Shown piece after piece: positions 18,286 to 46,949 of a stretch of DNA of 64,000 nt. The translations under genes and the position numbers were made by a program. Position 1 is the first letter of the stretch. Each line of letters opens with the position of its first letter. Where the stretch lies: positions 64,001 through 128,000 of the forward strand of contig JBBCAW010000012.1 in NCBI GenBank assembly GCA_051382295.1, written 5' to 3'. Below the pieces are notes generated by a model, which ran no database searches, was not told where the DNA came from, and worked only from the letters and a program-made list of their open reading frames with translations. This DNA comes from Bdellovibrionota bacterium FG-1 (GTDB taxonomy: Bacteria; Bdellovibrionota; UBA1018).

Positions 18286-18614
18286 TCCACTCCGGTCCCT
18301 CCGGTTCTTATGGCCCGTTTCCGTGAGGTGACTTTGTTCTGTCCCAGTGCCTCATCCAGGGAGGTATATTTGGGCGTTTCAAAGAGGCGCTCGAATGTGC
18401 TTTCGGCCCCAAGTGCGGTGGCGATCCGCAAGGCATTTTCAACAGAGACGTGCCCCGTTTTTTCAAAGCGGTGAAGCGTTGCAACACCGATGCCGGAGCG
18501 GTCCGCATGCTCCTGTTGGGTCCAGTTTCGAGAGAGTCGTAGAGCCTGAGTGCGTTGACCAATCGCTAAAAGGATATTTGAATAGGATTCAAGGCCTGTC
18601 CTAGAATTGATCAT
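18282..18614 (-). CDS. XRE-family HTH regulator, HipB-like antitoxin
   Basis: RLSRNWTQQE-ADRSGIGVATLHRFE-TG HTH; overlaps the hipA start (ATGA). Confidence 0.8.
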   Translation of the reverse strand: MINSRTGLESYSNILLAIGQRTQALRLSRNWTQQEHADRSGIGVATLHRFEKTGHVSVENALRIATALGAESTFERLFETPKYTSLDEALGQNKVTSRKRAIRTGGTGVE

Positions 18615-21594: not shown

Positions 21595-21771
21595 AAAAGG
21601 TCGATTCTCCTCGTTAAAATGGAATTTCCACGGAAATCGGTAATCTAATACAGAAATGGTCGGATAAAGGCAACTGGAAAAAACCGTCGCTGTTTTTAGT
21701 CGGAAAATTGAACCAAATCGAGCAGAACTCTCGTCCTGAGATCTCCGGTTAAACGCTGTACCCGGATCACC

Positions 21772-21912
21772 TCAGAGCTGTCCTAAGCAGTCGGCAATTG
21801 TTTTGACTAGAAAAACCAAGAGCTTGGCGAGGACAAAAAGACGCCAAATTCTAAATTTAAGTTTTTCGAGTCGGATCCGATGAGCATAATAGATGGTTCT
21901 ATTACTTTTCAT
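21772..21912 (-). CDS. 46-aa basic/hydrophobic peptide, candidate type I toxin (MKSNRTIYYAHRIRLEKLKFRIWRLFVLAKLLVFLVKTIADCLGQL)
   Basis: AAGGAGG 6 nt before the ATG; same length in all three repeats; several synonymous substitutions between copies. Confidence 0.8.
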   Translation of the reverse strand: MKSNRTIYYAHRIRLEKLKFRIWRLFVLAKLLVFLVKTIADCLGQL

Positions 21913-21915
21913 AGG

Positions 21916-21950
21916 ATGCCTCCTTTCTTTTTAGTGAAGAAGGGAGGTAT
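21916..21950. promoter_or_regulatory. Hairpin containing the peptide SD (anti-SD CCUCC / SD GGAGG)
   Basis: atgcctcctttctt-N7-aagaagggaggtat; the stem is invariant in three copies and only the loop varies. Confidence 0.7.
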
Positions 21951-22120
21951 TTCCGTCTACTCTGCGCGGTTTGGCAGGAACTTCAAAAGCAAAATTAATG
22001 CCGATGCCTGCTGGAACTTACAAAGGTTTTATCCCGTGGTCCGTCCGGATTTCGGTGAGGGTATTCGAAATTGGGACCAATAGGGTGTGCACAAGTCGTG
22101 GATGATGTTATATAACGTCG

Positions 22121-22648
22121 ATGAATATTGATCTGCGCCCCATCCATGTCAAAGATTGGAAATTGCTTTTGAAGTGGCGCAATGATCCTCAAGTGACGCG
22201 TGACCTTGCTTTTCAAGCGATGTCTGAGGAAAGGGTCAGGCAGTTCATTCAGGAGAAGGTTGACTCGACGACAGATCGGACTTTTGTGATTGAATGTGAC
22301 GGGCAGGTGATCGGATATACTTTGATTGAGTCAGACGTTCTGAATAAAAAATGCGAAGTCGGCATCATTATTGGTGAGAAAGGATATTGGGGAAAGGGGA
22401 TCGGAAAGCAAGTTTGTCGAAAGATCACCGACATTGCCATTTCGGAGATGGGTTTACACCGGGTTTTGGCCGTGGCTTCTGAAAGAAATCTCGGATCAAT
22501 TCGTTGTTTTTTGTCTCAAGGATATCGCGAAGAGGGGCGTCTGCGGCACGCCAACTATCGCGACGGTAAGTTTTATGATCTTGTGCTGTTGTCTATGTTG
22601 TCCCACGAGTGGAATCATATACCAAACCGAGCAGAATTCTCTTCCTGA
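22121..22648 (+). CDS. GNAT acetyltransferase, RimJ/RimL family
   Basis: IDLRP----D---L-KWRND, IG---YWGKGIG, N-GS-R-F---G--EEGRLR. The last 28 nt lie inside repeat copy 2. Confidence 0.9.
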   Translation: MNIDLRPIHVKDWKLLLKWRNDPQVTRDLAFQAMSEERVRQFIQEKVDSTTDRTFVIECDGQVIGYTLIESDVLNKKCEVGIIIGEKGYWGKGIGKQVCRKITDIAISEMGLHRVLAVASERNLGSIRCFLSQGYREEGRLRHANYRDGKFYDLVLLSMLSHEWNHIPNRAEFSS

Positions 22649-22971
22649 GATCTCCGGTTAAATGCTGTACCCAGATCAACTCAGATTTGTCCTAAGTAGT
22701 CGGCTGCAGTTTTGACTAGAAAAACCAGAATCTTGACGAGGACATAAAGACGCCAAGATTTAAATTTGAGTTTTTCAAGTCGGATCCGATGAGCATAATA
22801 GTTGTTTCTATTACTTTTCATAGGATGCCTCCTTTCTTTTTGACGAAGAAGGGAGGTATTTCCGTCTACTCTGCGCGGTTTGGCAGGGACCTCAAAAGCA
22901 AATTTGATGCCGACGCAACCTCGAAATTACGAGGCTTCAGGGCTGTTACCCGTCCGGATTTCGGTGAGGGT
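22621..22971. repeat. Long direct repeat copy 2 (351 bp, right end replaced)
   Basis: Colinear with copies 1 and 3 up to ggtgagggt, then unrelated sequence. Confidence 0.95.
22681..22821 (-). CDS. 46-aa candidate type I toxin, copy 2 (MKSNRNNYYAHRIRLEKLKFKSWRLYVLVKILVFLVKTAADYLGQI)
   Basis: Same SD, start and stop positions as copy 1. Confidence 0.8.
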   Translation of the reverse strand: MKSNRNNYYAHRIRLEKLKFKSWRLYVLVKILVFLVKTAADYLGQI

Positions 22972-23055
22972 GACTAGAATCCGGACCCGGAAAGTTCAAA
23001 AGCCCCTCCTCCCTTCCCAGCCCAAAAGCAGCGACCAGGAAGGAGGGGCGCAGTT

Positions 23056-24333
23056 TTAGTTTTTGTAAATCGGCAAAATTCCAAAGGGAGCAGCAGGGGC
23101 TTTTGAATAAAATAACCGACGTCCCCAAGGTGCTTTTTGTTTGCTGACGATTTTACCGTCACAGCTGACTTCGGTGCGAAATCCACCCTGATCAAATATC
23201 CCACCCAATGGCCAATCTTCCGGAGTATCGGTACATGAGGTGGCTGAGCATTCAATAGGCCAAAAGGGTCCCCCGGCCTCTTTCTGTCCTGGGGCGAATT
23301 GAGTGAAACAAACCAATCCGAAAGTTCGGCACTCAGGATTCGAGAATTCGACGTGAAGATGGTCAACGACTCCAATCGCTTTCACGGTTTTGGTGAGGAG
23401 GGCGTTTCCAAAAAAATCACGACAAACAGCGACGCATTGATTGTTCATATCCTTTTCGGTATTCGGGACTCCCGAAGGATAGGCATCACTTTCTTTTTCC
23501 TCCCAATATCTAATAAAATCTAAGCCAATGGTTTTACAGGCGCCGCCGGTTGAGACTGGCTGATAAATGACGGGTAATGGCTGATTGCCGGATTTTTCCA
23601 CAGAAACCTGCCAGCTGAAATGGGGCGCAATGGGTTGAAGTTTGTTTCAGTCAGAGGTGGGGGCGAATAAAAAGCCGACCATCTTTCGGGCTTCTTCGGA
23701 GTCATGAGCTTCGTAGTAAAGACGAGCTAGGCCATAAAGCACTTCGTGAACAAAAAAGGCGGCTTGATCGGTAGGTGTGAATTTATCAAATACGGTTTTA
23801 GAGATCCGGAGTGTGCCATCCGATTCGTAAAATCCTGCGTATTGGAGCTCGCACCCTTCTGGGATCACAGCGGGAAAGTGCGAGCCTAAATCAGAAACCC
23901 CGGGCATCGTGACACCAGCAGGTAGGAAATTGACCTGGGTCTTGAATTTTATGAGGAGATCCACAAAGTCCTGTCCGATGTATGGATTCCACTGGGCTAA
24001 TCGTGCTTGGATTTGATTGATTTGCGCATCAGCGCTGTCTTGAGATTGCGGAATCGTCAGGCCAAAACGAATTTCGGCTTCATAGAGGTCGAGAAGGTGA
24101 GCGGAAACGACCTTGCGATCAGTTCCTAGGCAGACCACCGACGCTCCGCCTCCGCTCGAGCCCGGCCCTGTTGAAGTGCTCGTTCTGCCTCCGCCGATTT
24201 TTTCGGTTACTACTGAGGTACCCAGAGCGGGTGGGCGATCGGATGGGGAGGGCGTGGTCCCTTGTTTACTGCAGGCGCAAAACACCAAAAGGAATCCGAC
24301 GGTTGAAAGAAATTTTAGGGCAGAGGATTTCAT
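23056..24333 (-). pseudogene. Lipoprotein (GGG-x-VVC...LLDLYE type) split by an in-frame TGA at 23647-23649
   Basis: Signal peptide ending in FCAC. ORFs 23647..24333 and 23056..23601 share a frame and are separated by only one TGA. Confidence 0.6.
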
Positions 24334-24476
24334 ACATTTTTCCGTTTCCGCTGCGATTTAACAAGAGGAGCATCATTTAGCAGCGTTTCGCCACGTAAAA
24401 AATGGCTGATTTTTAGGAGCTAAACTAGATAATAATTATGTTTTTATTACCTTAATTGTTATAAATTATTACTCAT

Positions 24477-25286
24477 ATGGGTGAGCAAAGTGTTTTTTCT
24501 TTTTCAGACTATAAGCAGTTTCTTTGTCATTATGTGGATGTTCACAAAAAAGAGCGGGGCAGTATCCGGCGGATGGCTGAAGCGGCGGGTTGTCAGCGAT
24601 CCTACATGTCCCAAGTTTTAGGCACTCATGTGCATTTAACACGGGAGCAGGCGTGGGGTCTGTGTTCTTTGTTTGGTTTTAAGGATCTTGAGTCGCAATA
24701 TTTTATGGTGTTGATCGATCTCGCGCGCGCGGGAAGCAAAAAATATCGGGAAAATTTGGAGTCGCAGCGAAAAATGTTAAAACAAAGGTCCGAGGATCTT
24801 TCGGAACGCACCACGCGTAAGCGGATCGAGTCTGAGGATTTTGCGATGGAGTATTATTCGGCGTGGTATTGGAGCGCGATCCATATTTTAGTTTCTATTC
24901 CGGGCTTTCAGACTGTGAAGTCAATTGCGGCAAAGTTGTTTCTTGATGAAAAAACAGTCGAAAACAGCCTTAAACGATTGGCTGTGATGAAATTGGTCAC
25001 TCAAGAAAAAGATCGATGGTGTTTCAGGCAAGAAAGTATTCATGTGCCAAAGGATTCGCCTTATGTGGTCTTTCATCATCGGAATTGGCGAGATCGGTCG
25101 GTTTTATCTTCACAGGCCTCGGATCACGAGGGGATTCATTACACGATGGTTCAATCCGTGAGTCGAGACGTGTTGCCTCGAGTTCGTCAGCTTTTTCTGG
25201 ATGCTATAGAGCAAGCCAATCGTATTGCTGGCCCTTCTGCTCCTCAAGAGTTGGTCGCGATTAACTGTGACATTTTTTCAGTATGA
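24477..25286 (+). CDS. TIGR02147/DUF4423-like HTH protein
   Basis: DY--FL, SY-SQVL-----LT-EQA, YYS-WY-SAIH, H-NWR pattern typical of this Bdellovibrio-expanded family. Confidence 0.75.
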   Translation: MGEQSVFSFSDYKQFLCHYVDVHKKERGSIRRMAEAAGCQRSYMSQVLGTHVHLTREQAWGLCSLFGFKDLESQYFMVLIDLARAGSKKYRENLESQRKMLKQRSEDLSERTTRKRIESEDFAMEYYSAWYWSAIHILVSIPGFQTVKSIAAKLFLDEKTVENSLKRLAVMKLVTQEKDRWCFRQESIHVPKDSPYVVFHHRNWRDRSVLSSQASDHEGIHYTMVQSVSRDVLPRVRQLFLDAIEQANRIAGPSAPQELVAINCDIFSV

Positions 25287-25313
25287 ATAAGAAACCCAGC
25301 ATAGGGTTTTAAA

Positions 25314-25700
25314 ACCAAACCGAGCAGAATTCTCATCCTGAGATCTCCGGTTAAATGCTGTACCCGGATCACCTCAGATTTGTCCTAAATAGTCGGCTAT
25401 TGTTTTGACCAGAAAAACCAAGATCTTGGCGAGGACAAAAAGACGCCAAGATTTAAATTTCAGTTTTTCAAGTCGCGTCCGATGAGCATAATAGGTTGCT
25501 CTATTATTTTTCATAGGATGCCTCCTTTCTTTTTGACGAAGAAGGGAGGTATTTCCGTCTACTCTGCGCGGTTTGGCAGGGACCTCAAAAGCAAATCTAG
25601 TGCCGATGCTACCTCGAAATTACGAGGCTTCAGGGCCGTTACCCGTCCGGATTTCGGTGAGGGTATTCGAAATTGGGACCAATAGGGTGTGCACAAGTCG
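25314..25700. repeat. Long direct repeat copy 3 (387 bp)
   Basis: Colinear with copies 1 and 2. Confidence 0.95.
25374..25514 (-). CDS. 46-aa candidate type I toxin, copy 3 (MKNNRATYYAHRTRLEKLKFKSWRLFVLAKILVFLVKTIADYLGQI)
   Basis: Same SD, start and stop positions as copies 1 and 2. Confidence 0.8.
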   Translation of the reverse strand: MKNNRATYYAHRTRLEKLKFKSWRLFVLAKILVFLVKTIADYLGQI

Positions 25701-46733: not shown

Positions 46734-46949
46734 AAAAAGTCCTCAGCGCAGATGATGCAACGGGTGTGCCGTTCCATGTCTTTTCTTTATTTAATAGTTT
46801 CAATGAGTTACGTGTTGTTACGTGAGAGGCCTCAAGGGTGTTTTGATGAACTTTAATACACATGGCTAGAATATTTGTATTGAGGTTTGTTTTTCATTCC
46901 TGTATAACGCACTGCGTTAGATTAACCGATCGTTTTCTTGAGGCATGAC

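Follow-up and report, generated by a model that had tools for sequence, protein, structure and literature searches.

A toxin-type small-gene family with sigma-54-type promoters in Bdellovibrionota, a plausible but unproven type I toxin-antitoxin system

What is encoded by a direct repeat that occurs three times in the window, i.e. the whole 64,000-nt stretch analysed here (contig C12, positions 64001-128000) from the genome of Bdellovibrionota bacterium FG-1 (assembly of 4.44 Mb in 158 contigs, labelled G000), and is it a type I toxin-antitoxin (TA) system, as a preliminary description of this DNA had suggested? We propose that the repeats are self-contained expression units, each for a tail-anchored, cationic peptide of 43-53 residues, and that their design is that of type I toxin genes such as hok and aapA1, a reading to which we assign a probability of about 0.5. 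That the repeats form a real, structured family of small genes with sigma-54-type promoters is very probable. As for its mode of action, the chances that the family works like a type I toxin gene, with a toxic membrane peptide whose translation is gated by mRNA refolding, are roughly even or slightly better, and the existence of a cis-antisense antitoxin is a candidate feature that we regard as somewhat doubtful. The family is thus described here as a toxin-type family under sigma-54 control, whose type I TA status is plausible but unproven.

A family of coding repeats

The repeat search returned one direct-repeat family with three copies, A, B and C, at 21711-22010, 22620-22919 and 25313-25612, which are 88-89% identical over 300 nt. 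In the three-way alignment, the conserved stretch extends from about 165-185 nt 5' of an ATG to about 60 nt beyond a stop codon. The minus-strand open reading frames (ORFs) for 46-residue peptides given in the preliminary description are present at 21772..21912 (copy A), 22681..22821 (copy B) and 25374..25514 (copy C), with identical translations, and in all three copies the ATG is preceded by AAGGAGG and a 6-nt spacer, CATCCT, as had been stated.

A blastn search with copy A detected 13 DNA copies in the genome, with identities down to 66%, and an iterated hidden Markov model search over 79,309 six-frame ORFs of 30-120 codons detected 26 peptide copies; the repeats are therefore far beyond chance. 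All 26 copies have an ATG start with a Shine-Dalgarno (SD)-like purine-rich run within the preceding 25 nt, and 25 of them are 43-53 residues long, the copy on contig C9, which carries an internal deletion, reading 58. The ORF is retained in 12 of the 13 copies detected by DNA similarity alone. The copies fall into several subfamilies, with 34-85% identity to copy C, and tandem arrays with a spacing of about 430-450 nt are found on contigs C5, C22 and C62.

Among 50 units from six genomes, the median ratio of nonsynonymous to synonymous substitution rates (dN/dS) was 0.53, with values below 1 in 98% of 188 pairs, which were restricted to a proportion of synonymous differences (pS) of 0.02 < pS < 0.5 and are not independent. 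The mean column entropy in these units was 1.06, 0.84 and 1.27 at codon positions 1, 2 and 3, the third position being the most variable. The plus-strand ORFs of 62-67 codons that run across the 5' untranslated region (5'UTR) of the three copies (21880-22083, 22789-22977 and 25482-25685) were judged incidental, an antisense ORF of at least 50 residues being found in only 6 of 52 units, and the one that was scanned, 21880-22083, has no Pfam match. Since the copies keep the ATG, the SD-like run and the length, dN/dS is mostly below 1, codon position 3 is the most variable and antisense ORFs are not conserved, the minus-strand ORF is a real coding gene.

The AlphaFold2 model of the copy C peptide, built on a 66-sequence alignment, consists of a single helix spanning residues 3-45, with a mean predicted local distance difference test score of 83.6. 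The net charge of the N-terminal half is +6 to +7, and the C-terminal half (LFVLAKILVFLVKTIADYL in copy C) is hydrophobic, a 19-residue Kyte-Doolittle window reaching at least 1.6 in 61 of the 66 members; the best-conserved motif of the peptide is R-(I/L)-(R/K)-L-E-K-L-K-x-K-x-W. These predicted features point to a tail-anchored, cationic, single-pass peptide of the general type I toxin kind.

The preliminary description took the peptide family to be an unknown one, and the databases agree. The Pfam cut-off was reached by none of 66 members, NCBIfam matched none of three and PADLOC none of 24, PADLOC and PHROGs gave no match at E ≤ 0.04, and Rfam 15 gave no match at gathering score across the whole window. 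Sub-threshold Rfam matches (E up to 1) were taken as chance; these include a sense-strand match to sok (17.5 bits, the gathering score being 59) and one to tmRNA (11.8 against 47). A CopA-like match at 25483-25558 on the plus strand (25.2 bits against 60, E 0.24) is probably also due to chance, though it covers the start codon and SD region of copy C on the opposite strand, the place expected of an antisense RNA. An index of 5.8 billion proteins yielded 68 public homologues, all of about 40-83 residues, none with a Pfam domain and every named one called 'hypothetical protein', and 58 clusters match in a library of 1.84 billion representative proteins. The named public records that carry the peptide are metagenome-assembled genomes labelled Oligoflexia bacterium, Silvanigrellaceae bacterium, Bdellovibrionota bacterium FG-2 and one uncultured Rickettsiales; three named loci were recovered in the related-locus search, with a narrow alignment. 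In the Protein Atlas the top matches, with a score of 0.84, are unnamed, and the nearest named cluster, TisB at 0.77, is a lead only.

The family occurs in 10 of 41 genomes (G000 and 40 relatives), with 26 copies in G000, 18 in G002, 7 in G018, 4 in G032 and 3 in G036. In an even sample of the phylum it was detected in 22 of 401 genomes, G000 included (E ≤ 1e-5). The other 21 positive genomes all belong to families f1, f2, f6, f9 and f10, which are in the same order as G000, and the 309 genomes from family f13 onward gave no match, at most 17 candidates being scored per genome. This patchy distribution, like the tandem arrays and the decayed copies, fits the toxin-type reading. Taken together, the family, peptide and database analyses uphold the original portrait of a small cationic and hydrophobic peptide encoded in multiple copies, whose chromosomal repeats are clustered and have long stretches of conserved non-coding sequence on either side of the ORF.

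Promoter and mRNA structure

The alignment of all copies contains an invariant block, YGGCAY-N5-TTGCW, upstream of the ORF. The exact form GGCAY-N5-TTGC lies 85-92 nt 5' of the ATG in 24 of the 26 copies, and the remaining two deviate by one base. The sigma-54 consensus, as given in PMC2831329, is TGGca-N4-5-ttGCaa, with GG at -24 and GC at -12, and the repeat motif agrees with it at GG -24, at GC -12 and in spacing. In the window, these sigma-54-type promoters are found on the minus strand at 21989..22002 in copy A (GGCATTAATTTTGC), 22898..22911 in copy B (GGCATCAAATTTGC) and 25591..25604 in copy C (GGCACTAGATTTGC). A relaxed form of the motif occurs 22-36 nt before the mRNA end helix described below in 47 of 52 units (all 26 of G000 and 21 of 26 from other genera), and this distance is kept where an insertion in the loop of the SD hairpin shifts the ATG to 116-120 nt, which is the behaviour expected of a promoter that fixes the 5' end of a transcript. 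The genome encodes one rpoN (Sigma54_DBD match, 219 bits) and about 25 strong Sigma54_activat matches, i.e. enhancer-binding proteins.

Genome-wide, GGCAY-N5-TTGC has 137 matches compared to about 17 expected by chance, and 24 of them belong to the peptide family, which thereby holds roughly a sixth of the sigma-54-type promoters of the genome. The 113 sites outside the family, set against a total expectation of about 17, suggest a large sigma-54 regulon. The window itself contains 5 matches, compared to 1.66 expected; three lie at the repeats, and the two others are on the minus strand at 18481-18494 and 46757-46770.

About 60-110 nt further 5', a second block could be aligned in most of the 26 G000 units. 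In the window copies it consists of a dyad, GTCCnnATTTCG-N12-CGAAATCCGGAC, followed by an A-rich tract, and it is located on the minus strand at 22043..22077 in copy A (GTCCCAATTTCG ... CCGAAATCCGGAC), 22952..22986 in copy B and 25645..25679 in copy C. Outside the units, an nhmmer search of the genome gave no match to this element below E 0.04, it is not recognisably conserved in other genera, and no activator gene was found adjoining the units. The dyad is a candidate site for an enhancer-binding protein. These elements change how the upstream region is to be read. The preliminary description regarded 150-190 nt before the ORF as a conserved leader; the conservation is real, but only about 65 nt of it correspond to the predicted 5'UTR, the rest being the sigma-54-type promoter and the upstream dyad element. 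The promoter, which that description overlooked, changes the kind of regulation that is likely for these genes.

With the transcript start placed 12 nt after the GC of the -12 element and the end placed after the 3' arm of the end helix, each copy is predicted to give a minus-strand mRNA of about 269 nt: 21977→21709 for copy A, 22886→22618 for copy B and 25579→25311 for copy C, with minimum free energies (MFE) of -86.6, -88.1 and -92.7 kcal/mol, respectively. The copy C fold has a z-score of -5.69, and none of 200 shuffled sequences was equally stable.

The most prominent feature of these folds is an end helix of 13 bp, in which the 5' end of the mRNA (CCAAACCGCGCAG) pairs with its 3' end (CTGCTCGGTTTGG). 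On the minus strand, its 5' and 3' arms are located at 21962..21974 (CCAAACCGCGCAG) and 21713..21725 (CTGCTCGATTTGG) in copy A, at 22871..22883 and 22622..22634 in copy B, and at 25564..25576 and 25315..25327 in copy C, where the 3' arm is followed by TTTT. The repeat finder reported the same structure in copy C as an inverted repeat of 14 nt, 93% complementary, at 25315-25328 / 25563-25576. Over 50 units, 87.7% of the cells of the end helix are paired and 9 of the 13 pairs have changed on both sides, one position being A-U in 23 units, G-C in 14 and G-U in 6. One-sided changes in the arms give G.U (33) more often than C.A (19), which points to pairing in the RNA. The end helix is present in 46 of 50 single-sequence MFE folds, and at least 3 T residues occur within 6 nt after the 3' arm in 37 of 50 units.

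The second feature is a hairpin in which the SD region, AAGAAAGGAGG, pairs with an upstream anti-SD sequence, CCTCCCTTCTT. The anti-SD and SD regions lie on the minus strand at 21937..21947 and 21919..21929 in copy A, 22846..22856 and 22828..22838 in copy B, and 25539..25549 and 25521..25531 in copy C. Compensatory variants such as CTCCAAT/ATTGGAG, CCCCCG/CGGGGG and CCCCTCTT/AAGAGAGG are found among the units. The SD is paired upstream in 49 of the 50 MFE folds, and in local folds 50 of 52 units have at least 80% of the SD paired with sequence upstream of it, compared to 73 of 264 control genes with a strong SD from the same genome. Hand-set columns for this helix were 67.8% paired because the SD register shifts between subfamilies, and they were replaced by per-sequence folds and helix searches; RNAalifold on a MAFFT alignment recovered only 13 pairs. 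For the two specified helices jointly, the covariation score was 0.259 compared to 0.183 for shuffles, none of 500 shuffles reaching 0.259, and slid partners gave at most 0.146.

Additionally, the folds of the window copies contain a hairpin just 3' of the start codon, in some folds including it, a nested pair of helices within the ORF, and hairpins in the 3'UTR around a near-invariant GGGTRCAGC. This loop motif (GGGTACAGC) is located on the minus strand at 21755..21763, 22664..22672 and 25357..25365 in copies A, B and C. Synonymous codon choice in the family is unusual, with CTA in 27 of 50 cases (5% of Leu codons in the long ORFs of the genome), AGA in 23 of 26 (7% of Arg codons), CGG in 43 of 50 and, at a Tyr-Tyr site, TAT in 64 of 71, because the helices inside the ORF constrain the codons.

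These elements suggest the following course of expression for a gene built like hok or aapA1. Transcription would begin only once the sigma-54 polymerase is activated by an enhancer-binding protein that occupies the dyad, and the resulting full-length mRNA would be stable but translationally inert. As in hok and AapA1, loss or opening of the 3' arm would then allow a refolding of the 5' region that makes the SD accessible, and the peptide would insert into the inner membrane and cause its depolarisation or permeabilisation. The antitoxin would be a cis-antisense RNA that starts opposite codons 5-8 or so and carries the complement of the SD hairpin; this is the weakest step of the scheme.

Antisense RNA and rival explanations

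The toxin-mRNA hallmarks, namely the helix between the 5' and 3' ends and the sequestered SD, sustain one half of the type I TA proposal of the preliminary description; the other half, the antisense RNA partner, is a candidate only. The promoter-like pattern TTTTCN-16-NATAAT matched 32 times on the antisense strand at a single conserved position of the 50-unit alignment, opposite conserved Tyr-Tyr and Glu-Lys codons; by hand count, these matches fall in about 27 units. The sigma-70-like sites of the window are on the plus strand at 21863..21890 in copy A (TTTTCG-16-CATAAT, a weak site with 8/12 matches, placed by register with the two other copies), 22772..22799 in copy B (TTTTCA-16-CATAAT, within the 5' end of the ORF, the total of sites in the scanned region not exceeding that of shuffles) and 25465..25492 in copy C (TTTTCA-16-CATAAT). 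The region of the SD hairpin is more stable when folded as antisense RNA in 45 of 52 units (mean -20.9 vs -15.2 kcal/mol) and is the sole region of this kind, the sense fold being favoured for the ORF interior in 41 of 52 units and for the 3'UTR in 46 of 52. The non-Watson-Crick oppositions in this hairpin are C.A in 117 cases and G.U in 25, an excess that bears on the antisense strand, because a C.A opposition in the sense RNA reads as a G.U pair in the antisense RNA.

Several observations weigh against an antisense antitoxin and, with it, against a complete type I system. The sense strand has 19 promoter-like hits in the same alignment bin, so the antisense promoter scan is non-discriminating, and the antisense site overlaps both constrained codons and an mRNA hairpin; the synonymous bias at the Tyr-Tyr and Glu-Lys codons can be explained by helices within the mRNA. 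The C.A excess could equally reflect selection for a weakened sense hairpin that can be opened. No intrinsic terminator was seen after the antisense SD hairpin on sequence inspection; the sole terminator-like site on the plus strand, 25484-25501, is the start-codon hairpin read backwards and occurs in one copy only. A blastn-short search of all 26 mRNAs against the genome for a trans-encoded complement gave only a partial copy on contig C96 and one 23-nt match (E 0.004), and the Rfam antitoxin models have no match at gathering score. Furthermore, judged by titles and abstracts, sigma-54 promoters are not known for type I toxins, and such tight promoters may make an antitoxin unnecessary. Finally, a dN/dS of about 0.5 indicates a merely moderate constraint, though the RNA helices lower dS.

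The main rival, which we consider unlikely but well ahead of those that follow, is a stress regulon of small membrane peptides under sigma-54 and enhancer control that has no RNA antitoxin. The peptides would be held off by the activator-dependent promoter and by self-closure of the mRNA, and might be toxic at high dose or serve in membrane stress or dormancy. The promoter and mRNA-structure evidence fits this explanation equally, neither a convincing antisense promoter with a terminator nor a trans complement was found, the family's 24 of the 137 sigma-54-like sites suggest co-regulation by one signal, and the dyad is confined, at E < 0.04, to the units in which it was aligned. Nevertheless, such a regulon leaves the antisense-favoured SD hairpin and the C.A excess unexplained unless a weakened sense hairpin has been selected, and 26 dispersed or tandem copies with decaying members resemble a selfish or addictive family over a housekeeping stress protein.

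Another possibility, which we find improbable, is that the structured RNA of about 270 nt is the main product, as a sigma-54-dependent regulatory or dual-function RNA, with the peptide secondary. The end helix, the GGGTRCAGC loop and the helices inside the ORF are conserved as much as the ORF or more, rare codons (CTA and AGA) are fixed at RNA-paired sites, and the folding z-score of copy C is in keeping with such a role. However, in nearly all units the frame is intact and the ATG is preceded by a strong SD-like run, the length changes are in frame, codon position 3 is the most variable, dN/dS is almost always below 1 and no Rfam family matches, while the same dual constraint is equally seen in structured toxin mRNAs. 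An RNA-only explanation fails because the frame, the start codon and the SD are preserved.

The repeat might also be a miniature inverted-repeat transposable element (MITE) whose terminal inverted repeats are the 13-14-nt arms and whose ORF is incidental, as the arms lie about 250 nt apart with 93% complementarity and the copies are numerous, dispersed and often at contig ends. This is very unlikely. Conservation continues past the 5' arm, the promoter (in all genera) and the dyad (in G000) lying outside it, and the arms behave as RNA pairs, as judged from their one-sided changes; the ORF is under purifying selection. The unit of about 390 nt has no terminal inverted repeat at its ends, its only long-range inverted repeat being internal, at the mRNA ends, a layout that fits neither a MITE nor the end of an insertion sequence, which the preliminary description had named as an alternative. 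The plasmid and phage collections gave no DNA match. The neighbours of the units are varied housekeeping genes, those in the window encoding QueG, a RimO/MiaB-type radical-SAM enzyme, DUF520, a GNAT acetyltransferase, DUF4423 and SMC, and no recurring protein partner, whether transposase-like or for modification, transport or immunity, is found among them. A precursor of a bacteriocin or of a ribosomally made, modified peptide, to which the small size, the multiple and partly tandem copies and the better conserved N-terminal half might point, is the least probable explanation of all, given that modification, transport and immunity genes do not recur beside the units, that the peptide has neither a Cys/Ser/Thr-rich core nor a leader cleavage motif, and that a single membrane-type helix is predicted.

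Some further observations concern the surroundings and the state of the units. DUF4423 (PF14394) has 34 matches in the genome, and 3 of the 26 peptide units are oriented tail-to-tail with a DUF4423 gene that is no more than a few hundred nt away (24477-25286, plus strand, in the window; C130:12305-12769 and C89:25446-25940 elsewhere in G000), about 0.2 such pairings being expected by chance in a rough estimate. Some units adjoin genes typical of TA-rich islands, which encode a PIN_3 domain protein and nucleotidyltransferases of the NTP_transf_2/Polbeta and DUF6036 kinds (L007:1804-2277, minus strand; L008:1-732, plus; L047:927-1508, plus). The decaying unit on contig C9 (C9:1419-1862, L008) lacks about 57 nt of ORF and 3'UTR sequence and directly follows what is left of the 3' part of another unit, and C96:4985-5099 is a 115-nt fragment of a C10-type unit. 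Many copies lie within about 2 kb of contig ends, and several within a few hundred nt, as at C56:23029, C3:126982, C9:1686 and C141:25662 in G000 and, in relatives, on C45, C176, C224 and C100 of G002, C207 of G018, and C13 and C26 of G029. The family probably breaks assemblies and the copy numbers are probably underestimates.

Known systems and significance

To our knowledge, type I toxin systems have been catalogued almost solely in model species of Proteobacteria and Firmicutes. The hok gene encodes a membrane peptide of about 50 residues, occurs in multiple chromosomal copies and gives an mRNA whose 3' end folds onto its 5' end, with the SD closed until 3' processing. The present family resembles it in the small membrane peptide, the multiple copies and the end-to-end closure of the mRNA with a closed SD. 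It differs from hok/sok in its unrelated sequence, in the C-terminal position of the hydrophobic helix, in having a sigma-54-type promoter and no mok-like leader ORF, and in that a Sok-like RNA is only a candidate, the sok model itself having matched far below its gathering score and on the sense strand. The ldr/rdl loci of E. coli are long direct repeats, some of them in tandem, each with a promoter, a long leader, a small ORF for a toxic peptide and a trailer. The same layout of promoter, leader, ORF and trailer in partly tandem long direct repeats is found here, but the sequences are unrelated, and ldr has no sigma-54 promoter and does have a known antisense RNA, Rdl.

The toxin genes of tisB/istR-1 and dinQ/agrB each have a stress-responsive promoter of their own and a primary transcript that is translationally inert, and the present units likewise have a dedicated, controlled promoter and a primary transcript predicted to be inert. 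Those two systems, in the layout given by T1TAdb (PMC8594479), have LexA-repressed sigma-70 promoters and divergent, trans-acting antitoxins, whereas the genome search found no divergent or trans complement here. A parallel in mRNA design besides hok is aapA1/IsoA1 of Helicobacter pylori. According to PMC5416894, the full-length AapA1 mRNA has an interaction between its 5'UTR and 3' end and a masked SD, 3' processing activates it, its authors liken it to hok, the antisense RNA IsoA1 overlaps the translation start of aapA1, and the aapA family is multicopy. The present family shares the 5'-3' closure, the masked SD and the multiple copies. It differs in that AapA1 has 30 residues, in that IsoA1 is abundant with a defined promoter while the antisense RNA here is hypothetical, and in that the SD is here masked by a local anti-SD hairpin besides the end helix. 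T1TAdb comprises 24 families in 218 species, and a term search of the main text of PMC8594479 gave no occurrence of Bdellovibrio or Oligoflexia. None of the papers found on type I toxins and Bdellovibrio, judged by title and abstract, is about such a system.

The family described here is therefore a new toxin-type family whose mRNA design converges on that of hok and AapA1 and whose transcriptional control is of a new mode. A bolder version, which is still less likely than the antitoxin-free stress regulon, would be a sigma-54 'toxin regulon', in which some two dozen unlinked genes, all encoding members of one family of membrane-active peptides, share the activator dyad. A single enhancer-binding protein could fire all of them as an all-or-none switch for dormancy, lysis or abortive infection, the self-closing mRNAs would act as a delay timer, and there would be either no antitoxin or a cis-antisense RNA of a new family. 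If true, this would be the first type I toxin-like system controlled by sigma-54 and the first such family in Bdellovibrionota.

The peptide genes are absent from annotations or called 'hypothetical' and, being repeats, they probably break assemblies. The family would add a phylum to the catalogued type I toxin systems, and the hok/AapA1 solution, i.e. end-to-end closure of the mRNA with a hidden SD, has arisen once more, on a peptide of unrelated sequence and with covariation that is clear across genera. What is new is the sigma-54 promoter. Promoters of this type stay silent unless an activator is present, so that the family can serve as a testable example of toxin-like genes under enhancer control, and it raises the question of whether tight control of transcription can replace an antitoxin.

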